From Candidatus Saccharimonadia bacterium (GTDB taxonomy: Bacteria; Patescibacteriota; Saccharimonadia; Saccharimonadales; 2-12-FULL-41-12), in contig OY970327.1 in assembly GCA_963717365.1 (NCBI GenBank), positions 395,599 to 459,598 of the forward strand: a stretch of DNA of 64,000 bases, written 5' to 3'. Each line of letters begins with the position of its first letter. The first letter of the stretch is position 1. Shown here one piece after another: positions 3,764-64,000 of the stretch. A program made the position numbers and the translations under genes. Below the pieces are notes generated by a model. The model was not told the DNA's origin. It ran no database searches and saw only the letters and a list, made by a program, of their open reading frames with translations.

Positions 3764-3814
3764 AATTGATTATCCACTTCCAGCATTATTCTTTTAGCCG
3801 TAAACTATTAAGAC

Positions 3815-5398
3815 ATGGGGAAAGCACTTTACAGGCAGTTCCGGCCCGCTTCGTTTGACGAGGTAATCGGCCAGGAGCATGTCACAACAACACTTAAGAA
3901 CAGCCTGAAAAATGGATCAATCGGCCATGCCTATCTTTTAACTGGCCCTCACGGGGTTGGCAAAACAAGTATTGCTCGCATATTAGCCTTTGCAGTTAAC
4001 GATATACCATATGAAACAGATGGTATTCATTTGGATATTATCGAAATAGACGCGGCTTCCAACCGCCGAATTGACGAGATTCGCAGTCTGAGAGAACGCG
4101 TGCATATCGCTCCCACCAGCGGTAAGTACAAAGTTTACATAATAGACGAAGTACATATGCTTACCCGCGAAGCTTTTAACGCGCTGCTCAAAACTCTTGA
4201 AGAACCACCGGCTCACGTTATATTCATACTTGCCACAACTGAGATACATAAACTACCAGACACCATTGTCAGCCGCTGCATTACCTTTACCTTTCGGCCA
4301 ATTGATTCTGTTAATATGGTCAAGCACTTAAAACACATTGCCGATTCAGAAGGTTTTAAAATAGAAAAGGAAGCGCTTGAACTATTAGCAGTACACGGCG
4401 ATGGTAGCTTTCGAGATAGTATTTCTTTACTCGACCAAGTCAAAGACGCCATCGGCACAGTGACTGCTGCAGATATTGAATTAACCTTAGGGTTAGCTTC
4501 TGGAGACGTCATACAAGCCATATTAAGCGCTGTGGCAAACGGCAATCCTCAAGAACTTTCTACGGCATTGAGCCTGGCTTACGAACATGGCGCTAGCGAG
4601 ACAAATCTGAGTAAACAAATCGCCAAACGAGTCAGACAGGACTTGCTGTCTGGCAAAGCAGTCTTATTATCTTCAGGTGACGCGTTAACGTTATTGGCTG
4701 ACTTATTAAATGTTCCGTCATCACCTAAGCCACGAGCCAAGTTAGAGCTAAGCCTATTAAGCCAGTTGTTTAAAAAACATCGGGTCGAAGCGCTTGTTGT
4801 TCCTATTGAAGCAGCTGCGTCCCCAGATACCCTTAATTCTGATGAGATTCGATCTGTTAATCTTTCTGAAGAAGCTAGCAGTTTAAATTCAGAACCGGCT
4901 TCCGTTACCTCTATTTCATTAGAAATTAATGAAGACGAGAAACGAAGTCAAGAAAATGGAATTAAACCTACTGTTTCAGCTGAAATTGAAAACATTCAGC
5001 AGGAGGATACTAGTATCCCTGAGATAATGGAAACAGCGGAACCAGATAGAAAAGCAGCCGACGAAGACACAAACGAAAACGAACTTTGGGATGATGTCCT
5101 CCAAAAATTGAAATCTCAGAACAATACATTATATGGAATAGCACGAATGGCTGACGCTGATATTACGCGCAAAAAATTAACGTTGTGTTTCAAGTTTCCC
5201 TTTCATTATCGCCAGGTTAATCAAGCTAAGAATAAAGCAATTATAGCTAAAATTATGGAAAATTTAGATTACAAGAATATGGAGCTTAATATTACTCAGC
5301 AAGAAGATTCTAAAAAGGTTGTCAAAGCTGACACCAAAGATGATACATTGGCAAACATAACCAATATTTTTGGTGACAGCGAAGTGTTAGAATCGTAA
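3815..5398 (+). CDS. dnaX: DNA polymerase III subunit gamma/tau
   Basis: N-terminal clamp-loader AAA+ motifs: GQEHV, GPHGVGKTS (Walker A), IIDEVH (Walker B), SRC. Confidence 0.9.
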   Translation: MGKALYRQFRPASFDEVIGQEHVTTTLKNSLKNGSIGHAYLLTGPHGVGKTSIARILAFAVNDIPYETDGIHLDIIEIDAASNRRIDEIRSLRERVHIAPTSGKYKVYIIDEVHMLTREAFNALLKTLEEPPAHVIFILATTEIHKLPDTIVSRCITFTFRPIDSVNMVKHLKHIADSEGFKIEKEALELLAVHGDGSFRDSISLLDQVKDAIGTVTAADIELTLGLASGDVIQAILSAVANGNPQELSTALSLAYEHGASETNLSKQIAKRVRQDLLSGKAVLLSSGDALTLLADLLNVPSSPKPRAKLELSLLSQLFKKHRVEALVVPIEAAASPDTLNSDEIRSVNLSEEASSLNSEPASVTSISLEINEDEKRSQENGIKPTVSAEIENIQQEDTSIPEIMETAEPDRKAADEDTNENELWDDVLQKLKSQNNTLYGIARMADADITRKKLTLCFKFPFHYRQVNQAKNKAIIAKIMENLDYKNMELNITQQEDSKKVVKADTKDDTLANITNIFGDSEVLES

Positions 5399-8375: not shown

Positions 8376-8981
8376 GTGAGCGTACTCCCTAAAGCACTAG
8401 AAAATGTCATGAACGCCCTCGGCACCCTGCCGGGAGTAGGACCGCGTAGTGCCGAACGATATGCGTATTACTTACTACGAGCAGATCAAAGCAAGAGCCA
8501 TCAGATCGCTAAGACCCTGGATATCCTACATGCCAGTGTTAAGTATTGCCCTAAAACATTTGCCTTAATTAACGTTGATCAAGAACTTTCACCGCTATAT
8601 GTAGATCCCGAAAGAGATAAAACTGTTGTTGCCGTAGTTGAAGATCCGTTTGATATTGTGGCTCTAGAGCGAGTTGGACAGTTCAAAGGCACCTACCATG
8701 TACTCGGCGGTCTGATTTCTCCGATTGATAATGTTGGGCCAGAATCCCTACACGTGCGCGAGCTGGTGCAACGTATTGACGATGACAAGGTTAAAGAAAT
8801 TATTTTGGCTACTAACGCAAGCGTAGAAGGCGAGTCAACTGGCTTGTTTTTAGCTCAAGAGATTGGTAATCGTAAAGTTAAGATAACGCGTCTGGCGCAC
8901 GGACTGCCCATTGGACTCGACTTAGAGTATGCGGACCAAATTACCCTCGGCAGAGCTTTAGAGGGACGTCAGGCCTTCTAA
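8376..8981 (+). CDS. recR: recombination protein RecR
   Basis: GTG start. HhH motif LPGVGPRSAERYAYYLL and Toprim region YHVLGGLISP...ATNASVEGE. The zinc-finger cysteines are largely absent (see findings). Confidence 0.9.
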   Translation: MSVLPKALENVMNALGTLPGVGPRSAERYAYYLLRADQSKSHQIAKTLDILHASVKYCPKTFALINVDQELSPLYVDPERDKTVVAVVEDPFDIVALERVGQFKGTYHVLGGLISPIDNVGPESLHVRELVQRIDDDKVKEIILATNASVEGESTGLFLAQEIGNRKVKITRLAHGLPIGLDLEYADQITLGRALEGRQAF

Positions 8982-54917: not shown

Positions 54918-54966
54918 CATTTACAGAAATCAATCTGTTAGTTAGAATAAGTAAGTTCAGATATAT

Positions 54967-55270
54967 TCCGGGGTAGCTCAGCGGTAGAGCGGGTGGCTGT
55001 GAATACGCAGCCTGATTTGGGCAACCAATCAGTGAAAATAGGGTGAATTGCGGGAAGCCTACGTGCAATTGCATATGGTAATCCGCAGCCAAGCCAGGAT
55101 TAGGTTAAAAGATCCAGGAAGGTTCAGAGACTAGAGGGTGAGCCTAACAATAATCTCTCAGACAGCGCCCTACATCCTTGCAAAGGATGATGATATAGTC
55201 CACGCCACTATGAAAGTAGTGAATAAGTGTAACCACTAGGTCGAAGGTTCGAATCCTTTCCCCGGAGCCA
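54967..55270 (+). tRNA. tRNA-Asn (anticodon GTT) interrupted by a group I intron; exons 54967-55000 and 55230-55270, CCA encoded
   Basis: The joined exons give a 75-nt cloverleaf: TCCGGGG/CCCCGGA acceptor, GCTC-AGCGGTA-GAGC D arm, GGTGG-CTGTTAA-CCACT anticodon arm, GAAGG-TTCGAAT-CCTTT T arm, G73-CCA. Confidence 0.8.
55001..55229 (+). ncRNA. group I (self-splicing type) intron in the tRNA-Asn anticodon loop
   Basis: Conserved core blocks AATTGCGGGAAGCC (55046-59), TAATCCGCAGCCAAGCC (55079-95), GGTTCAGAGACTAGA (55121-35) and GATATAGTCC (55192-201). P1 has a U-G pair at the 5' splice site and the terminal base is G at 55229. P2, P8 and P9 hairpins are present. Confidence 0.8.
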
Positions 55271-56707
55271 AGAAATGAATTCCTGATGTTCAGCCATTAA
55301 ATTGAATGGCGAATTGAACTCCCACAGGAGTTCTTTTCTTTTTAAGCGCAAGTTCGAGAGTACCATTTCTACTAACATCCGTTTCTGCTCAATGTTCGCT
55401 CTTTGAAACAATTCTGGGGCGTTTTTTGATAGCTTGAACAGATGAGTGACTGTTCCATAGTAGTCATCTTCTACAAGTTCTAGATTTACACGCTTATTCT
55501 GCAATGACTTCTGGGAATGTCTGTATTCTTCAAATTTTCGGTCATATAGGCTTTCTGGAATCTTTTCATCCAGGTAATCCTCATATACTTTTTCAATACG
55601 AGTTTGATACTTTTCTATTTCAACGTCTAGGTTCATCAAAGTAGTTTCACGTACGCGTTTTTTGTCCTCGTGAGAGCTTCGTAGAGCCTCGCTAACTTGC
55701 TTATATGCTTCAGGCGGAATCTGTATGCTCTTGAAAGCTTTCATTAATTGTTGGGTCAGTAAATCTTCGGATACGTAAGCTATCTTGTGCTTGGCTTTGC
55801 CAAGTGTACAGTGGCCGTAAATATAGAGACCTTTCTTCCGTTCAAAAGTTACTCGGCACCCACATTCGGCACATTTAATTAATCCTCGATACACAAACGG
55901 TAGTCCTGCCCAACGATACTTTTTGATATTGAAGCCTTTGCGAATGCTATCTGCTTGATCAAACAAGTCTTTTGAAATTATTGGTTCGTACTTATGAGTG
56001 TATAGTTCGCCTTTAACCCGCATGTCTCCATGGTAGAAAGGGTTTTGAAGTAATGCGTCTAGCTGACTTCTGGATAGACTTAAACCATAGGATTCATTCC
56101 AATTCTTGCTCAATTCTTTAACCGATATAACTCCTGAAGCGTATTGAGTGAATGCGTCCCTAATTGCGTCAGCCTTAAAAGCGTCAGGTTCTATCCATTT
56201 CTTACCATTTGGCAACACAGTGTTTCTATAACCAAAGGGAGCCATACCAGCCCATTCGCCGTCACGCCACTTCTGCTCAAACCGGCGTTTTACATTGTCA
56301 CTTATTGCGTCTGAATAGTATTGAGCGACAACAATACCCATACCCAGACGTAATAGGTCTGTTGCCGGAGAGAACTGATTGATAAACAAATTGTCTGATG
56401 GAAAGTGAAGCTCAATTTTTCCGCCACGATACAAACTTTGCAGAATCCTTACTTCTTCCGAACTACTATCTCTTGTATACCTATCTATTTTGTCAAAAAC
56501 GACTATGGCTTTTTCATTCCAGTTTTTGATTTCATCAACCACGTTTTTGAATTCATCCCGATTGCCCTTATAGGCGCTTTCTTTGAGTTCAAACAGTTGA
56601 AAGTCATAATCCCTCCGTTTGGCATACTCTAATAATCGGTGGGTTTGCGCTGGAAGCGCGTCTTTCTGGTCGTCAGTAGATACTCTGGCTAATAGATAAG
56701 CTTTCAT
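55208..56707 (-). CDS. large serine recombinase (integrase)
   Basis: N-terminal resolvase catalytic motif YLLARVSTDDQ, a recombinase domain, a Cys-rich zinc ribbon (CAECGCRVTF...GHC) and a coiled-coil C-terminus. The last 20 codons are antisense to the tRNA-Asn 3' exon and the intron end. Confidence 0.9.
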   Translation of the reverse strand: MKAYLLARVSTDDQKDALPAQTHRLLEYAKRRDYDFQLFELKESAYKGNRDEFKNVVDEIKNWNEKAIVVFDKIDRYTRDSSSEEVRILQSLYRGGKIELHFPSDNLFINQFSPATDLLRLGMGIVVAQYYSDAISDNVKRRFEQKWRDGEWAGMAPFGYRNTVLPNGKKWIEPDAFKADAIRDAFTQYASGVISVKELSKNWNESYGLSLSRSQLDALLQNPFYHGDMRVKGELYTHKYEPIISKDLFDQADSIRKGFNIKKYRWAGLPFVYRGLIKCAECGCRVTFERKKGLYIYGHCTLGKAKHKIAYVSEDLLTQQLMKAFKSIQIPPEAYKQVSEALRSSHEDKKRVRETTLMNLDVEIEKYQTRIEKVYEDYLDEKIPESLYDRKFEEYRHSQKSLQNKRVNLELVEDDYYGTVTHLFKLSKNAPELFQRANIEQKRMLVEMVLSNLRLKRKELLWEFNSPFNLMAEHQEFISWLRGKDSNLRPSGYTYSLLS

Positions 56708-56852
56708 TTTCTCTCCCTTACTAAAAATGGACGGTTGCCGCTTTTCCAGTCCAACAAGCCGAAGCCGTCTTTCTGAAGCAACCGCCCATTAAGAGCAGAA
56801 AATAAAAACAGCCCGACATATAGTTGAATTGGAAAAGCACTATCATTATATC

Positions 56853-57365
56853 TCATACGCTTCGCTTCTTAATTAACTCGTTATATTTTTGCTTATAATT
56901 TTCACGATTTATGCTTTCTTTTAAATCTATTTCTTTGTCTTTAATACCCCCCAACTTTTGGGGAGGGTAAGCGGAATTATTGGGTACCCCCCTCACCGTT
57001 TTTTGGAGAGGGGTGTGGGTACTTTCTTCCATGTTATCCAACACTTTAACTAAACCATTCCATGTATGGCGGTATGATTCTCCTGAAATAAGTTTTCTTT
57101 CGATAAATGATTTTTCTTCTAAACCCTTAAGTGCCTTTTTAACTGTTTTGATATCGGCACCCATTTCATTAGCAATTCTTTGATGACGAAGCTTTTTGTT
57201 TTCGCCATATGAAATAACGATTAGTAATACAATAGCTTCGGATTTGCCAAGGTTTAGTTTTCCGAGATTTCTTAACAATTTATTTGGAATCTGAGTGTAA
57301 TAATGAAGTGCAGTATATGGACCCCATTTCCGCTCAAAGGTTTTTGAGGATTTTACAAATGTCAT
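56853..57365 (-). CDS. winged-helix/HTH DNA-binding protein (possible replication or regulatory function)
   Basis: The central segment QRIANEMGADIKTVKKALKGLEEKSFIER resembles a wHTH. The assignment is tentative. Confidence 0.55.
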   Translation of the reverse strand: MTFVKSSKTFERKWGPYTALHYYTQIPNKLLRNLGKLNLGKSEAIVLLIVISYGENKKLRHQRIANEMGADIKTVKKALKGLEEKSFIERKLISGESYRHTWNGLVKVLDNMEESTHTPLQKTVRGVPNNSAYPPQKLGGIKDKEIDLKESINRENYKQKYNELIKKRSV

Positions 57366-57622
57366 CAGATTATCTCGTATTCCACCAATACATCTCGCAC
57401 CGCGTCTTCAATCAGTAAACCAAGTTCGTGTTTAACAGGATGACAAAGGTCTACATTCTTTTTTCGAGGGTAAACAAGTCGTATTCCACCGTGCGGGCGA
57501 GTGTGGATACCAACACCCCCGATGAACAGAGCGTCAAAAAGCACAAAACTCGCAAAAGCTATCAGTCCAAATTTAGGTCTGATTGGAACGATTTCTATTT
57601 CAGATATTATCGGTGTTTCCAC
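57365..57622 (-). CDS. SpoVG-like protein
   Basis: 85 aa. By-eye alignment to SpoVG: GLIAFASFVLFDALFIGGVGIH...LVYPRK....CHPV..EL...IEDAV. Confidence 0.55.
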   Translation of the reverse strand: METPIISEIEIVPIRPKFGLIAFASFVLFDALFIGGVGIHTRPHGGIRLVYPRKKNVDLCHPVKHELGLLIEDAVRDVLVEYEII

Positions 57623-57741
57623 TTGAATTGCTTTCTATGGTCGCAAGCAATTCAAAGAAGCTGACTAATTTTTCTATCACATCTTCTTCACTTCCTGCGG
57701 ACATACAGAAAGTAAATCAAAATTAAAAGTCAGAGATATCT

Positions 57742-58293
57742 CTAACTTATTTTGGGAATTTTGCTCTGATGTTTTCTGGAAAAGTAAAATTCTTTAGTTG
57801 TGACTACGAATATCGTACCAAGCCTATATTTCAAATCAATCTTAGTCTGAATTCGTGAAACTGTGAGTGATATTGCTTTAGGACTCTTAAAGTCTCTCCG
57901 TTCATTTTGGAATTTCTCAAATACGTCTCCAACCTGGAATTTCTTTTTGTGTGGTCGTCCGTCCTTTTTCTTAAACATAATTGAAAGGATATCCGCTTCT
58001 TTACCCTCAAAATGCATTGATAAATTTCGCTGAAAATATAAATCTTGTTTCTTGTGATCGTAGCGCAGAAGAAACCCTCTTTTAGGAATATAAGCAAAAT
58101 ATGAAACTGTTTCCTCTAATTCATCTAATTTTAAGTTGTTTTTCCTTGTTTCTTTGATTAAATCATCAAGCTTTCCGATGATCGTCACATAGGCATGGAA
58201 ATCATTATTCAGTAAACGCCTTATGTCGTTTTCTTCCGGCGAACCAAAAGGGTCGTTATTCTCAGAATCTTTCATCACATCTTCCTTATACAA
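57742..58293 (-). CDS. hypothetical protein with a possible OmpR/PhoB-type winged-helix C-terminus
   Basis: The C-terminal EADILSIMFKK...ISLTVSRIQTKI pattern resembles the trans_reg_C wing. Weak. Confidence 0.5.
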   Translation of the reverse strand: MYKEDVMKDSENNDPFGSPEENDIRRLLNNDFHAYVTIIGKLDDLIKETRKNNLKLDELEETVSYFAYIPKRGFLLRYDHKKQDLYFQRNLSMHFEGKEADILSIMFKKKDGRPHKKKFQVGDVFEKFQNERRDFKSPKAISLTVSRIQTKIDLKYRLGTIFVVTTKEFYFSRKHQSKIPKIS

Positions 58294-58335
58294 TCAGTAT
58301 AGGGGTATTCACTAAATAAACGGGAGAAAAAGTAA

Positions 58336-58545
58336 ATGATTATCTCAATTAAAGAAGCACGTAAGATTCTTGGCAATATAGCCAATACCATGACAGACAA
58401 GCAGATTGAAGAATTAGTCGAGACGCTTGATGTACTAGCCGTACAGGCATTAAAAATTGCGCGAGAAAAACGTATAAAAGAAGATGCTCAGGCATTGGCC
58501 GAGCTGACCTATGACATATACACAGATAAAAACGACAATTCTTAA
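58336..58545 (+). CDS. small hypothetical helical protein
   Basis: 69-aa ORF with a good RBS (GGGAGAAAAAGTAA-ATG), divergent from 57742-58293. Confidence 0.45.
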   Translation: MIISIKEARKILGNIANTMTDKQIEELVETLDVLAVQALKIAREKRIKEDAQALAELTYDIYTDKNDNS

Positions 58546-58603
58546 GTGTTATTCTCAAGCGTAAGCATTATGAAAACCAAGCACCATTGGTTAACATTAA
58601 GTC

Positions 58604-60730
58604 ATGAGAGTTGACTTTCACTGCCATACAAAAAAGGTAAAATCGGGCGAAGTTGCCACGCGTAATGTCACGCCAGAATTATTTGCAGAAAAAGTACGAA
58701 ATGCAGACGTAAAAATCGTAGCCATCACTAACCATAACGTATTCGATACTACCCAGTACAACGAGCTAGCTACTGCTGCTGGAGATGATTGCCAAGTATG
58801 GCCTGGTATCGAGCTTAATATTAATGGAAGTAATGGAAAGCAATGGCACTTGATAGTAGTAAGTAATCCTGAAACAGTGAGCGACTTCTATGACATTGTA
58901 TCTAAACTGACACACGGAGTTAGTCCGGAAGACTGTTATCTTGATATAGAAAATGTGGTGAGTGGCTTGTCGAGCATTGAATGCTTTTATTTACCTCACT
59001 ATCATAAAAGTCCTGAAATATCCGAAGAAGATTCTAAGAAGCTACTGGAGCTGGTAGGCGAAAGCTTTAAGATACTTAACGAAACCTCTGACATCAGATC
59101 AATGGGAGTTTTTGCTAATCACAACACGCGCGTTATCGTCGGAAGTGACGTAAAAGACTGGAATGACTACGAAGAGTCGTCATTTTCAGAGTTAAGGCTA
59201 CCCGTTGAAAGTTTTCATCAGCTTTATATGTTAGCAAAACGTGATCCACAAGTGGTAACTAGCCTTTTGGATAAGAACGATTCAAGGAGCTTAACGATAA
59301 ATTTTGCAGAAAAAGTAAAACTAGACCTCAAGCTATATAAAGAAGTTAACGTAGTTTTTGGCCCTAAAGGCACTGGCAAAAGTGAAATCCTTAAAGCAGT
59401 ACAGGAGACATTTGAAAAACAGGGCTACAGCTGCTGCGTATATCGCGGAAGCGAGAAGGACAGCCAATTCAATCAGCTATTGTCTGCTGACGACATGATG
59501 AGACACGTGGGCAAAGTGAACGCACTATCTTGCGAAGATCACTTTCAGGCTATTAAAGACTGGGAAGACAAAAGCCCCACACCAATACAGGATTATGTTC
59601 AATGGATTAACACCAAGGACATTAATGCTAATAAACAGCGTATGAAGATTACTCTCGCGAGTACATACCAGCAAGAAGACGGTCAAGAATTTGAGCAGGT
59701 TAAGGAAGATATTAAAAACATCCGCCGAGCAATCCGGGTCTTTAACCGAGTAGATGCCACAAAATACCTTACGTCTGCTGATTCAAAACAACTTGATACA
59801 CTTCTCGCTCGACTCGAAGATTTAATCGCAAATAAGTATCGCGATGAGCTTATCAATGTGTACGCTTCACAATTTAGTAACTGGAGTATCGAGATAATAA
59901 AGCGTCTCACTGATAAAAAAACGAATACCGTGTCGCGTCCTGGCACAACGGGATTTAGCCCTTTTGCGGCTAACCGCATAAAGCTACATCGGAGTGTCCA
60001 ATCAATCTTAAATAACATCAACGGCAAAGAGGTACGTGAGCGAAAATCGATTGGTAGCCTTGAAAGTAAGGGTAATGTTTATATTCAGTCGCGGTACAGG
60101 ATGTGCTGTAGTGAATCCAGGAGCGGGGAGTTCGGGGACAAAAAAGTTACGGATATTAAAAATGCGTTAAAACTATTGGGGGGCGTTAAAGAGAACTACT
60201 GTAGTGAGGATATCTACCATCAAGTTAGCACCTTATCGGATGAGCTGGAAACTACAGGCGTTAACTCCACCGAGCAATTCCTAGGACTTTCGAAAGAAGT
60301 TATCTTATCGAATGGCGAGGAGTATAAGCCCTCAAATGGGGAGAAGTCTATCCTCATGATGCAAAAAGTTCTAGGCGAAGATAAGGACGTATATATCTTT
60401 GACGAACCTGAACTTGGAATGGGCAACTCCTATATAGACAAGAATATTCGTCCGAAAATATCCAATTTAGGCAAGAGTAACAAAACGGTGGTCATAGCGA
60501 CACACAATGCCAATATTGCGGTCAGGACGTTACCTTATGCAACCATCTTCCGAGACCATGATAATGGTGTTTATAAAACATACATTGGCAATCCGTTTAT
60601 CAACTCCCTGATCAATATAAGAGATGATAATGATGTAATAAGCTGGAAAGAAACAAGTATGACGGTACTCGAAGGGGGTGTTGAAGCATTTTACGAAAGA
60701 AAGGATATTTATGAGTCAAGAAATAATTAA
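58604..60730 (+). CDS. PHP-domain phosphoesterase fused to an ABC/SMC-type ATPase (Ppl-like candidate defence protein)
   Basis: PHP ligand pattern FHCHT, ITNH, GIE, HLIV, PHYH, GSDVKDW. ATPase motifs GPKGTGKSE (Walker A), SNGEKS (signature-like), VYIFDEPELGMG (Walker B/D-loop) and ATHN (H-loop). Confidence 0.85.
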   Translation: MRVDFHCHTKKVKSGEVATRNVTPELFAEKVRNADVKIVAITNHNVFDTTQYNELATAAGDDCQVWPGIELNINGSNGKQWHLIVVSNPETVSDFYDIVSKLTHGVSPEDCYLDIENVVSGLSSIECFYLPHYHKSPEISEEDSKKLLELVGESFKILNETSDIRSMGVFANHNTRVIVGSDVKDWNDYEESSFSELRLPVESFHQLYMLAKRDPQVVTSLLDKNDSRSLTINFAEKVKLDLKLYKEVNVVFGPKGTGKSEILKAVQETFEKQGYSCCVYRGSEKDSQFNQLLSADDMMRHVGKVNALSCEDHFQAIKDWEDKSPTPIQDYVQWINTKDINANKQRMKITLASTYQQEDGQEFEQVKEDIKNIRRAIRVFNRVDATKYLTSADSKQLDTLLARLEDLIANKYRDELINVYASQFSNWSIEIIKRLTDKKTNTVSRPGTTGFSPFAANRIKLHRSVQSILNNINGKEVRERKSIGSLESKGNVYIQSRYRMCCSESRSGEFGDKKVTDIKNALKLLGGVKENYCSEDIYHQVSTLSDELETTGVNSTEQFLGLSKEVILSNGEEYKPSNGEKSILMMQKVLGEDKDVYIFDEPELGMGNSYIDKNIRPKISNLGKSNKTVVIATHNANIAVRTLPYATIFRDHDNGVYKTYIGNPFINSLINIRDDNDVISWKETSMTVLEGGVEAFYERKDIYESRNN

Positions 60731-61043
60731 AGTTGTCCTTTCCCAGCAAGGCGAAAGCGATGTTCTCACATTCGATATTAAAGAAAACGAAAAGGCACAA
60801 GAGTATTTTGTAGATCTTGGTGATTCGGCAAATAGTCAAACTCAACTCAAACGTATCTTTTCGCGACTGCTTACAATTCTCATCGAGAAGGACATCGCAT
60901 TAAAGCTTCAGGTAGAGAAAGGTTTTACGCGTGCGCTTCAACGGGAGGTAAGCAATGAATATATACAAGAATTAAATGAGGAGCTGAAAAAAGTTAAAGA
61001 GTTAATTGCAGAGCAATTAGCTGACGAAGAGTCAGAAAGCTGA
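60711..61043 (+). CDS. small acidic hypothetical protein, translationally coupled to the PHP-ATPase
   Basis: ATG at 60711 is preceded by AAAGGA and overlaps the upstream stop (60730) by 20 nt. About 110 aa, with a helical C-terminus. Confidence 0.55.
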   Translation: MSQEIIKVVLSQQGESDVLTFDIKENEKAQEYFVDLGDSANSQTQLKRIFSRLLTILIEKDIALKLQVEKGFTRALQREVSNEYIQELNEELKKVKELIAEQLADEESES

Positions 61044-61183
61044 CTTAAAGGCTCCTCACCATATAACCAAGGATACTAATCTAGTAATACAGATAGTGGG
61101 TTTTATTATCTGTAATTAGTATGGATTTTGGATACGCATATTGCTATACTCATCATATTATTTATGGTTACTAGAAGTAAAAA

Positions 61184-63025
61184 ATGAGATTCCTTGGAAA
61201 TAAAGACTCGATCTTGCCGGAGATCCGTAGCTTACTTGAAGAAAAGGGATTAACAAAAAAACGTCTCGTATTCTTCGATGCCTTTTGTGGTTCCGGCTCC
61301 GTTGCAAATCATTTTAAAGATGACTTCGACTTAATAATTAACGATCTCTTGGATTGGTGTGTAGTCTACTCAAGAGGTAGACTTTTTGCCGGAGAAATGC
61401 ACTTTCAGAGTCTTGGTTTCGACCCCATTGATTACTTAAATGATTCGCCAAACACGATTGAGGGGTTCTTCTATTCAAATTACTCCCCTGGTGGCTCAAG
61501 TAGAATGTATCTATCAAAACAAAATGCGGGTAGAGTCGACTTTATGCGCGGCCAAATTGAGCTGTGGCATTCAAAAAAACTTTTATCCGGCAACGAGAGA
61601 GACTACCTGCTTGCGTGTTTAATTGAGTCAATATCACTAGTTGCAAATGTGGCAGGAGTATACGGAGCATTTCTCAAGCATTGGGACAACAGAGCATTAA
61701 AGCCACTACGACTAGTTAGAATTGGGAATGAAACCGAGACACATAACAACATCGCATCTTTTAATAAAAAACTGGAGGATATTATTCAGGATGTTACTTG
61801 CGACATACTCTATATTGATCCACCCTATACGCAGAATCAGTATGGCACGCAGTACCATCTGTTACAGACTTTGGTTTTAAACGACAAGCCAACGATCAGT
61901 AAAATTACAGGCTCTCGACCTACTGGCCCCATGAGATCGGACTGGTCTAAAGATTTTAAAGCACATATTCTATTCGATAGCATAGTTGCGAAAACTAAGG
62001 CGAGGTATATCATTTTTAGCTATAGCACCGATGGCTTAATGACGAAAGGCTTTATTGAATCAATCCTTAAACGCTATGGGAAAGAAGAAACCTATCTCTG
62101 CAAAGAACTATCTTACAAGAGATATGGGAACCATAAATCAATTAAGAAAAATGGGCACTCTGAATATCTGTTCTTTGTGGAGAAGAAAGATCCTAAAGAA
62201 ATTGATTATGAATCACCTCTGAACTATATAGGTAGTAAGTCAAAACTGGTCAAGTACATAGAAAAGAACCTGCCTGCTCAATATAATCGTTTTTTTGACC
62301 TGTTTGGCGGTGGATTTAACGTTGGCATAAATATTGATGATAAAGAAGTATTCTATAACGACGCCAATTACTTTGTTAGAGATCTCGTAGAGTCCTTCCA
62401 AAAAAACGACACGTACCAATATCTTCTTTATATCAGGAAGATATCTAGACGGTTTGACCTAAAGGCGTCCTACGCCGAAGGTTTTTTAGCAGCCAGAAAA
62501 TACTATAACTCCCTCCCAGCAAACGTACGTGATCCACGTCTTCTATACACAGTTTTACTGTATGGGTTTCAGCAGCAACTTCGGTTTAATAGCAGGCACG
62601 AATTCAATAATCCTGTCGGTATGAGATGGTTCAACGATAGAGTATTAGCTAAGATGATAAGTTTTTCTAGAAAAATCAAAGAGGGCTCCTTTACATTCTC
62701 TGCGGAAGATTTTTTGAGTCTAGAACCACAAATACTGAAAGGCGACTTCGTTTACATGGATCCGCCCTACAGGCTAACGCGTGGCTCGTATAACGACGGC
62801 AAGCGAGGTTTTGGGGGCTGGGATATTCAGACTGAGCGTAAGTTGCTCGATTTTGCAGATAGGCTTGATAAGAAAGACGCGTTTTTTATGATTTCATATG
62901 TTGTTGAGCATGGGGGTGAATTTAATGACATTGTTAATGCTTGGGTTGCAGACCAAGGATATAAAACCATTGAAATTTCTGCACAGAATATTCGACGAAA
63001 AGAGATTTTAATAGTAAATTACTAA
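61184..63025 (+). CDS. tandem (two-domain) Dam-like N6-adenine DNA methyltransferase, FokI-methylase-like architecture
   Basis: Two complete motif sets: FFDAFCGSGS plus LYIDPPY in the first half, and FFDLFGGGFN plus VYMDPPY in the second half. Confidence 0.88.
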   Translation: MRFLGNKDSILPEIRSLLEEKGLTKKRLVFFDAFCGSGSVANHFKDDFDLIINDLLDWCVVYSRGRLFAGEMHFQSLGFDPIDYLNDSPNTIEGFFYSNYSPGGSSRMYLSKQNAGRVDFMRGQIELWHSKKLLSGNERDYLLACLIESISLVANVAGVYGAFLKHWDNRALKPLRLVRIGNETETHNNIASFNKKLEDIIQDVTCDILYIDPPYTQNQYGTQYHLLQTLVLNDKPTISKITGSRPTGPMRSDWSKDFKAHILFDSIVAKTKARYIIFSYSTDGLMTKGFIESILKRYGKEETYLCKELSYKRYGNHKSIKKNGHSEYLFFVEKKDPKEIDYESPLNYIGSKSKLVKYIEKNLPAQYNRFFDLFGGGFNVGINIDDKEVFYNDANYFVRDLVESFQKNDTYQYLLYIRKISRRFDLKASYAEGFLAARKYYNSLPANVRDPRLLYTVLLYGFQQQLRFNSRHEFNNPVGMRWFNDRVLAKMISFSRKIKEGSFTFSAEDFLSLEPQILKGDFVYMDPPYRLTRGSYNDGKRGFGGWDIQTERKLLDFADRLDKKDAFFMISYVVEHGGEFNDIVNAWVADQGYKTIEISAQNIRRKEILIVNY

Positions 63026-63030
63026 TAATC

Positions 63031-64000
63031 ATGACTCCTCATTTCACCATAAAGAATAAATTTCAAAAACGTCAGGATCAGTACTCGGATTTATTGACCG
63101 AAGATATACTCGCAGACATTTGTTACAGGATAACCGGTCAACGTAACTATACGTGCGACTTTCTTGATGAGGTAAACGTAGGACGACTGGCTACATTGGA
63201 GTACGAGGGCACGATTGCTTACGTATCTTTCTCGGAAGATTCAGTTCACGGTAGGAATTCAAGCTTCCAGAGTCTACCCAGCGCATTTACTCGATACTTC
63301 CTGGATGAACATACCAGCAAACGTATGTGTTTTTACTTCCTCCCAGCAGAAGGCTCGTACGAATCAGCCTATTTCAATTTTATGTATAGGCTAATGAACA
63401 CAGCCGGGATCGAGTTATTAAATCCAGAAAATCATCTCAGCACAGAGATAAATCCGTTCACGTCAGCTGATGACTTGATATTAAGCAGGGATAGTAATAG
63501 ATCAAGAAATCGGAGCAATAACTCCACCTATATAACAAAAGATGAGAATAACAGGGTTCAAGTCTACGGTAAAACTTATGGAGCTAGCAAGAAGGAGACG
63601 ACTCTGCTATGCGTAGCTCTGTCAAGAATATCGAATGATCATATAAATCTGTATCAAATAACGGAGCAAAATCTCACCACCCTCCCAGCACCTGATATGC
63701 AAGTCTTAGAGCAACTTGGAAACATCAATATTGTAATAACTGATATGCGACTCGAAAGAACCGAATTTGAAGCTGACGACAGCCTAAGGTCACCAAGATT
63801 TATATACAACTTATTAGCGAAGCTTGGACCGAAAAAATGTACATTCTGTGATTGTGAGATTCCTGAACTAATACAAGGTGCGCATATCTGGCCTGTTGCC
63901 TCCATCAAACGAGACAGCTCTCTTTCGCTAGAACAAAAGCTAGAGCACGCTATGGATGGTGATAATGGAATATGGCTGTGCGAGAACCATCATAAGCTAC
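63031..64000 (+). CDS. HNH-motif restriction endonuclease candidate; C-terminus beyond the window
   Basis: ATG at 63031, translated by hand and open to 64000. C-terminal CTFCDCEIPELIQGAHIWPV...DGDNGIWLCENHHKL is an HNH/zinc-finger nuclease pattern. Not in the ORF track because it is edge-truncated. Confidence 0.75.
   Translation, partial: MTPHFTIKNKFQKRQDQYSDLLTEDILADICYRITGQRNYTCDFLDEVNVGRLATLEYEGTIAYVSFSEDSVHGRNSSFQSLPSAFTRYFLDEHTSKRMCFYFLPAEGSYESAYFNFMYRLMNTAGIELLNPENHLSTEINPFTSADDLILSRDSNRSRNRSNNSTYITKDENNRVQVYGKTYGASKKETTLLCVALSRISNDHINLYQITEQNLTTLPAPDMQVLEQLGNINIVITDMRLERTEFEADDSLRSPRFIYNLLAKLGPKKCTFCDCEIPELIQGAHIWPVASIKRDSSLSLEQKLEHAMDGDNGIWLCENHHKL

Follow-up and report, generated by a model that had tools for sequence, protein, structure and literature searches.

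A large serine integrase gene overlapping tRNA-Asn in Candidatus Saccharimonadia and its probable place in a family of tRNA-targeting integrative elements

Why should the gene for a large serine integrase end inside a tRNA gene? The question is raised by a 64,000-nt stretch of DNA from a Candidatus Saccharimonadia bacterium (GTDB lineage Bacteria; Patescibacteriota; Saccharimonadia; Saccharimonadales; 2-12-FULL-41-12; GenBank assembly GCA_963717365.1, contig OY970327.1, positions 395,599 to 459,598 of the forward strand). In this stretch, which we call the window, an integrase gene (int) on the minus strand reads antisense through the 3' exon of tRNA-Asn and into the group I intron of the same tRNA. 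A preliminary description, made from the window sequence, had taken the overlap as a sign that the attachment site (att) of an integrative element lies within or at the end of int. Our comparison with homologous integrases and related loci points the same way: it is very likely that positions 55264-55270 are attL, the junction on the integrase side between the 3' end of tRNA-Asn and a small plasmid-like integrative element (4-10 kb).

The integrase gene and its overlap with tRNA genes

The overlap in the window involves the following features:

55208-56707, minus strand: large serine recombinase (integrase), 499 aa, ATG start (open reading frame (ORF), Pfam, homologues, AlphaFold2 (AF2) model)
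54967-55000, plus strand: 5' exon of tRNA-Asn(GTT) (ARAGORN, spliced sequence)
55001-55229, plus strand: group I intron that splits the anticodon between nt 35 and 36 (Rfam RF00028, 96.4 bits, E 2.4e-25)
55230-55270, plus strand: 3' exon of tRNA-Asn with encoded CCA, the putative source of the B-type half-site (ARAGORN, sequence comparison)

The product of 55208-56707 is a large serine recombinase with a resolvase domain, a recombinase domain and a zinc ribbon with a coiled-coil insertion. Pfam matches are to the Resolvase domain PF00239 (63.3 bits, 3.5e-17), the Recombinase domain PF07508 (36.2 bits, 7.8e-09) and Zn_ribbon_recom PF13408 (24.7 bits, 3e-05, just below the cut-off of 25.3), and the PF13408 zinc ribbon is precomputed for most of the homologues. 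The ORF is intact and full length, and it keeps every residue that is invariant in a 45-sequence alignment of the family, including R8, S10 and Q14, the cysteine cluster C279, C282 and C300, and W480, whose codon TGG is the complement of CCA. In the AF2 model, predicted helices at 332-379 and 385-407 fit the coiled-coil part.

The last 20 codons of int have a different origin from the rest of the gene. Read on the minus strand from 55270, they run TGG CTC CGG GGA AAG GAT TCG AAC CTT CGA CCT AGT GGT TAC ACT TAT TCA CTA CTT TCA TAG, and encode the tail WLRGKDSNLRPSGYTYSLLS* (residues 480-499). This tail-coding stretch is antisense to all 41 nt of the tRNA-Asn 3' exon and to 22 nt of intron, stop codon included. 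The preliminary description had thus been right about both the 499-aa recombinase ending at 55208, which the ORF call and the Pfam domains bear out, and the coordinates of the codons antisense to 55230-55270 and the adjoining 22 nt of intron.

The comparisons across homologues show that the overlap of int with a tRNA is a property of the family and more than chance. The window integrase has 1842 database homologues at E <= 0.001. Among the best 120 of these, which are 49-71% identical to it, 101 carry the tRNA-antisense tail W-x(2-5)-[D/G/E]-[S/L]-N, and in 69 of the 101 the stop falls exactly 12 residues past the W, in the anticodon loop (TAA or TAG). The motif arises from TGG, which complements CCA, and GAT TCG AAC, which complements the T-loop. 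We further examined 80 related loci from Saccharibacteria, Parcubacteria, Moranbacteria, Woesebacteria, Berkelbacteria and others, which divide as follows:

56/80 loci: int ends inside a tRNA called by ARAGORN (44 Asn; the rest Gln, Trp, Arg, Asp, Gly and Tyr)
9/80 loci: int ends inside an intron-containing or contig-truncated tRNA
9/80 loci: int has another tail
6/80 loci: uninformative

Altogether int ends in a tRNA, mostly tRNA-Asn, at 65/80 loci. Homology within the family reaches W480; a conserved C-terminus stopping well before residue ~479, the outcome that the preliminary description had set against its own proposal, was not what the alignment gave.

Two further loci illustrate the range of these overlaps. 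At locus L103 (2691-4340), a serine integrase of much lower similarity (549 aa; 27-30% identity) also ends inside an intron-containing tRNA-Asn, with the tail ..RPSGYTLPHIFT, and the arrangement is therefore not limited to one clade. In a decayed copy (L011, 10001-11491), int is broken into ORFs of 255 aa and 211 aa and joins a tRNA-like 3' remnant, TGGCTCCCCATACTGGTCACGAAC, with tRNA-type spacing and no intact tRNA.

The intron is incidental to integration, and its class has already been published. Only the junction 55000/55230 yields a tRNA-Asn(GTT), of 75 nt, in ARAGORN; with this predicted splicing, the intron interrupts the anticodon between G34 T35 and T36. The Rfam match to Intron_gpI spans 54965-55222. 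Patescibacteria are known to carry group I introns at position 35/36 of tRNA-Asn/Asp from the work of Nakagawa et al. 2026 (PMC13011429), in whose survey most such introns have no homing endonuclease gene, and neighbouring integrases or mobile elements of such tRNAs go unmentioned. The window intron shares the position, host phylum and Rfam class of these introns, and in itself is nothing new. The integrase adjoins an intron-containing tRNA in at least eight other loci (L029, L030, L032, L044, L048, L053, L056 and L103), intron-less tRNAs beside an integrase being far commoner. We call the intron incidental because the crossover lies ~35-40 nt away from it, most family members sit on an intron-less tRNA-Asn, and copies of the tRNA with neither int nor intron exist. 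Its only effect is on the length of the protein: the window integrase is seven residues longer than the common 492-aa form because the intron removes the usual stop in the anticodon loop. The preliminary description had singled out the intron-containing target as an unusual combination, a view that these comparisons do not sustain. Several tRNA-Asn loci with a group I intron also hold a conserved ORF of ~100 aa that, by its coordinates, is apparently intron-internal (L103 2193-2519, L030 11718-12005, and L044, L053 and L056).

Attachment sites, empty sites and a circular relative

The proposed junction in the window has two parts:

55264-55270: common core GGAGCCA of attL (acceptor end, discriminator and CCA), with the putative crossover inside; the core is shared by the attL and attR of relatives
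55271-55300: element-side (P'-type) arm of attL, in the last conserved int codons, placed from the core position and the attP forms

The core was delimited in relatives of the window element. Locus L009, in which int is fused to tRNA-Asn, and its close relative L011, which has another tail, are identical through TGGCTCC and then diverge. Far-end sites upstream of int in relatives have the form [flank]-TGGCTC-CCCCTAGTGGACGCACTTCGAACT, and within a single locus attL and attR have only TGGCTC(C) in common, complementary to (G)GAGCCA (L010, 5895/11438; L012, 2809/11438). The core also tracks the target, being TGGCAG at a tRNA-Trp locus and TGGTAC at tRNA-Arg loci. A common core of 6-7 bp is the outcome of a serine recombinase, unlike the long repeat left by a tyrosine integrase. 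The preliminary description had expected a repeat of the tRNA 3' portion further downstream; a 25-nt search allowing <=3 mismatches found no second copy in the window. This absence does not refute integration, because the ends of a serine integrase element share only 6-7 bp, here GGAGCCA.

Sequence comparison shows attP, attB, attL and attR all recovered in relatives. The attB form (L104/L105) reads tRNA-GGAGCCA-GACC.AGCAG..., and its flank, GACC.AGCAG.GAAA..GACC.AG.TCC.AGACC, is also the flank outside attR in L010 and L032. The attR form (L010) consists of a P arm and a flank of the L104/L105 type, the attL forms of a tRNA and the int 3' end, and the attP form (L081/L071) of a P arm and the int 3' end. 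The outer parts of these sites are likewise informative. In P arms of classes A and C, a hexamer TTCGAA/TTATAA occupies nt 23-28, counted from the T of TGG; in the tRNA arm, the T-loop TTCGAA (55248-55253 in the window) occupies nt 18-23, i.e. 5 bp nearer the core. The outward shift of 5 bp in the P arm agrees with the rule that the motif of the zinc-ribbon domain stands 5 bp nearer the centre in attB than in attP of serine integrases (PMC3783163). From this spacing we infer that the T-loop hexamer may be the zinc-ribbon-domain (outer) motif of the integrase.

Occupancy of the site varies among genomes, as the comparison for empty sites urged by the preliminary description revealed. A metagenome scan with the 3' exon of the window's tRNA-Asn as query returned five contigs (L100, L101, L102, L104 and L105) in which an intron-less tRNA-Asn has no int beside it. 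Relative to the window, their 3' exons are 98-100% identical (100% in L100, L101, L104 and L105) and their 5' exons 95-98% identical. Directly after the tRNA-Asn in these five contigs come terminator-like flanks and not int.

A free form was found in a relative. The 4142-bp contig L082 has a terminal overlap of 30 bp and closes to a 4112-bp circle; L083, independently assembled from another sample, is a circular permutation of it, 100% identical across the junction. The circle has four genes (int, one for a rolling-circle Rep of family PF23343, and two small ones) and holds no tRNA. Its attP, GCTAAT-TGGTGCC-CCCTCACCGACACACTTCGCAAC, straddles the int 3' end, and its Int tail is NWCPLTDTLRNSTD*. 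The L082/L083 circle belongs to a relative (49% identity) and not to the window copy. Contig L081 (5936 bp) has the gene order to be expected of a permuted circle, with int running into a class A arm and the tail WLPLVDALRN... A terminal overlap was absent in L081 and in 15/15 other whole contigs tested; circularity was borne out only for L082/L083.

In the mechanism that we propose, the integrase would recombine an attP straddling its own stop-codon region with an attB whose left half is the T-arm and acceptor end of the tRNA and whose centre is GGAGCCA. The crossover would fall inside the 6-7 bases common to attP and attB, and the tRNA would be rebuilt unchanged because these bases are identical in the two sites. 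On integration, the int frame would become fused to antisense tRNA sequence, and in the window it also enters the antisense intron because the intron displaces the usual TAA of the anticodon loop. In the excised circle, the int frame would enter the other attP arm and acquire a different short tail. The element would, in addition, supply a terminator-like hairpin for the tRNA from the 3' coding region of int. In the window, the tRNA is flanked by two candidate signals:

55316-55343, plus strand: terminator-like hairpin GAACTCC-CACA-GGAGTTC followed by a T-run, in the tRNA direction, inside int codons (KKPFDTMAF motif)
54920-54948, plus strand: promoter-like site upstream of tRNA-Asn, TTTACA-17-TAGAAT (consensus scan, 10/12 matches; a consensus match only)

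A comparable hairpin occurs at 35/56 integrated loci, mostly 18-25 nt past the tRNA, compared with 5/56 control windows, which suggests that the hairpin of the element may replace the displaced terminator of the tRNA.

Both of the linked proposals in the preliminary description, an attachment site at the end of int and different C-termini for integrated and excised forms, find support here. The core lies at the int 3' end, and the circular relative together with natural X-core-Y junctions bears out the change of tail at the level of the family (NWCPLTDTLRNSTD* and WLPLVDALR..). Such a change could be a regulatory device, with the integrated Int, its gene convergent with a tRNA under strong transcription, less stable or less expressed, as in the integration-dependent immunity of mycobacteriophage BPs. 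The tails differ systematically by form, an excised-type tail WLP[LI][VL]D[AV]LR[TN] recurs, and integrated int is transcribed head-on into the tRNA. However, the recurrence is explained by conservation of the P arm at the DNA level, as unrelated cassette genes read the arm on the opposite strand, giving ..SKLVH*. The length of integrated tails, 8 to >30 residues, differs with the tRNA, the window tail is predicted to be disordered (residues 484-499 have pLDDT <50, the AF2 confidence score, and the last helix is 468-477), and no degradation-tag motif was seen. We regard a regulatory function as unlikely; more probably, the C-terminal tail is a disordered extension that is tolerated and does not act as a switch.

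The proposed integrated element and tandem arrays in related loci

To the right of attL, the window holds the following:

55264-64000: integrated element from attL to the window end, attR not reached (att scans, GC content)
56853-57365, minus strand: winged-helix protein (HTH_36 / DnaD_N / Rep_O-like), probably for replication or regulation of the element (weak Pfam; counterpart in L011)
57365-57622, minus strand: SpoVG-like small protein, conserved backbone (weak Pfam SpoVG; homologues beside int in 32 loci)
57742-58293, minus strand: 183-aa backbone protein (homologues in 8 loci, same relative position)
58604-60730, plus strand: 708-aa ATPase like the candidate defence protein PDC-M49A, cargo (PADLOC PDLC04680, 1.7e-34, full length)
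61184-63025, plus strand: fused double D12-class N6-adenine DNA methyltransferase, cargo, type II restriction-modification (PF02086 5.5e-54, two stretches; PADLOC MTase_II 2.6e-151)
63031-64000, plus strand: HNH_2 endonuclease gene, incomplete at the window end; the product has 380 aa in a second assembly (Logan contig gene table)

Related elements have a backbone of int, a Rep or winged-helix protein, the SpoVG-like protein, which is the best-conserved gene after int, and small ORFs, and their cargo differs. That of the window is private: the ATPase, the methyltransferase and HNH_2 have no homologue in the 80 other loci except for a distant (24%) match to the methyltransferase in L045. No recombination directionality factor was identified among the small ORFs. 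GC content is 0.37-0.42 across the element versus 0.41-0.49 to its left. No att-like site was found to the right of attL in the window (nhmmer E <= 1; arm scan), which, together with the cargo matches, agrees with the earlier proposal of an element that carries defence genes and whose far end lies beyond 64000. In 39 loci, the nearest site upstream of attL is 4.2 to ~10 kb away, and the closest relatives of the window element (L001-L006) measure 9.0-9.5 kb; attR is therefore predicted a few hundred bases past 64000, at ~64.3-64.8 kb. The second assembly (Logan contig ERR12037361, 8090 bp, covering ~56710-64000 of the window) stops precisely at the start codon of int on one side and ~800 bp beyond the window on the other, which is consistent with population heterogeneity at the borders of the element.

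A rival reading is a prophage or large conjugative island of tens of kb, with a long tyrosine-style tRNA repeat at its far end; several related contigs with non-tRNA Int tails are indeed 55-60 kb long. Genes for FtsK and MMPL mark those contigs, however, as chromosomal. The short span between attR and attL in relatives (4.2 to ~10 kb), the absence of a second copy of the 25-nt tRNA end in the window, the lack of virion or conjugation genes and the absence of the clade from IMG/VR all speak against such an island, which we consider highly improbable. More specifically, no virion, packaging or lysis genes were found among the window ORFs, and IMG/VR holds only relatives that are 24-26% identical, the clade being essentially absent; by these gene-content and database comparisons the element is not a prophage. 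The homologues without a tRNA tail (L011, L019, L035, L040 and L071) had been considered as free attP forms of 55-60 kb phages, and this reading was rejected: in L019, a 1.07-kb unit separates int from tRNA-Arg, the broken int of L011 lies by chromosomal genes, and the class 'B' arm has tRNA-type spacing.

The window copy might, alternatively, be an immobile relic, with int stuck beside the tRNA and the read-through tail a neutral accident. Only attL is seen in the window, and decayed relatives exist, such as L011 with its split int beside a tRNA-like remnant. Against this stand the full-length int with all invariant residues, the backbone genes and private defence cargo, the difference in GC from the host side, and the near-identical tRNA sites that are empty in other genomes. 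We consider a relic rather improbable and infer that the window copy may still be active. Several observations nonetheless weigh against attL of an active integrative element as the explanation of this locus. With attR outside the window, a single junction of this copy is visible. The inverted symmetry of the P and P' arms is weak (a shared GTGCG is slight and was not relied on), and the zinc-ribbon Pfam score of the integrase is marginally under the cut-off. Finally, a winged-helix protein takes the place of the rolling-circle Rep of the circular relatives, so that the mode of replication may differ.

A site model (nhmmer) gave 102 matches across the 80 loci. Every match is on the int strand and either at attL or on the far side of int, with 0 of 102 on the host side beyond the tRNA. 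In many loci, several extra sites are present, 0.46-3.2 kb apart (median ~0.8 kb, most <1.2 kb), each just 3' of one gene, and the gene of the unit is on the tRNA strand in 25/30 units. Array junctions have the order P-type arm, core, terminator-like arm, e.g. GAGCCA-AGCATAAGCACT..AGTGCTTTTT, and the terminator-like arm resembles the 'native' flank in L102. Arrays were located at:

L010: 375-5895
L011: 342-2601
L018: 1780-5443
L025: 495-7257
L034: 511-2288
L048: 1028-3608
L100: ~8584-8621
L105: ~3792-4838

In L025, nine sites have the core TGGCAG, matching tRNA-Trp, and L019 has its 1.07-kb unit next to tRNA-Arg. The order in L032 (tRNA, int element, class A arm, terminator arm, 1-kb unit, class C arm, host flank of L105 type) is the one that serial insertion at the tRNA would give. 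Clustering the proteins of 30 units yielded no clusters, all unit proteins being different; a few have homologues beside att sites elsewhere, among them one common to a tRNA-Trp array and a tRNA-Asn array. These layouts point to accretion of cassettes that lack int, akin to composite islands of the staphylococcal cassette chromosome (SCC) or to cis-mobilizable elements. More broadly, and at somewhat less than an even chance, tRNA-Asn and a few other tRNAs of Patescibacteria may offer at their 3' ends a serine-integrase landing pad that is still competent after each insertion. On it, int mini-plasmids and one-gene cassettes without int would accumulate in tandem. A P-type arm, a tRNA-derived core and a terminator-like arm would bound every unit, and the T-loop would serve as outer motif. 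Array regions also contain other features, namely a reverse-transcriptase-like ORF of 343 aa with an adjacent 120-aa ORF downstream of tRNA-Asn (L010, 2787-4194) and a DUF3800-IX RNA (L048, 3907-3976; Rfam, 71 bits).

Relation to known systems and significance

Phage-type large serine integrases (Listeria A118/LI, Bxb1 and phiC31) share with the window integrase the order of domains and a long coiled coil, and have the same short att sites, with few common central bases and the P-arm outer motif 5 bp further out (PMC3783163). In contrast to these systems, the target here is the 3' terminus of a tRNA with the T-loop hexamer in the position of the outer motif, attP straddles the int stop region with a tail that depends on the state of integration, and the carriers are plasmid-like Patescibacteria elements of 4-10 kb and not phages. 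Islands of tRNA-targeting tyrosine integrases (Williams 2002; Islander/TIGER) have the same insertion at the tRNA 3' end, a restored gene, an adjoining int and variable occupancy. They belong to another enzyme family, and their common segment is tens of bases long, compared with 6-7 bp here.

In SCCmec, large serine recombinases of the Ccr type insert at the 3' end of the protein gene rlmH; the elements are tens of kb in size, and SCC elements with and without recombinase accumulate in tandem at one site. The likeness thus extends to a large serine recombinase, the 3' end of a conserved housekeeping gene, and tandem units with and without recombinase. The differences are the tRNA as target, the combination of one-gene cassettes of 0.5-1 kb with an int element of 4-10 kb, and an unrelated lineage. 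Mycobacteriophage BPs and the virus SSV1 both use tyrosine integrases; in BPs, truncation of the integrase has a demonstrated regulatory role, and in SSV1 int is split in two. As in these two, the attachment site lies inside coding sequence, and integrated and free forms encode different proteins; here, by contrast, the exchange affects no more than a short tail past W480, which is probably disordered, and the enzyme is of the serine type.

According to Mageeney et al. 2020 (PMC7192596), no serine integrase had been reported to use a t(m)RNA gene; they found only 14/297 candidates, unverified. Durrant et al. 2022 make no mention of tRNA targets. A literature search found no prior description of the integrase clade or of Saccharibacteria serine integrases. 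Judging from the homologues and loci compared here, a large group of tRNA-targeting serine integrases is apparently spread across Patescibacteria and undescribed. What would be new relative to described systems is the use of the terminal 6-7 nt of a tRNA with a T-arm half-site, an attP over the int stop region, and small plasmid-like carriers.

Serine integrases are the main tools for insertion of large DNA, and protein genes and intergenic sites were believed to make up nearly all of their natural targets. The clade offers a testable model of attB specificity built on a tRNA, in which the T-loop and CCA end, conserved universally, are read, the overlap is 6-7 bp and any tail is tolerated, and it is a source of integrases with predictable targets. 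The arrangement also accounts for the recurrent annotation of an 'integrase overlapping a tRNA' and for breaks in metagenome assemblies at such sites. Little is known of mobile elements in Patescibacteria, with their reduced genomes; the clade identifies the principal small ones there, and possibly a cassette-capture system. If true, the landing-pad arrays would be the serine-recombinase counterpart of integron or SCC cassette arrays.

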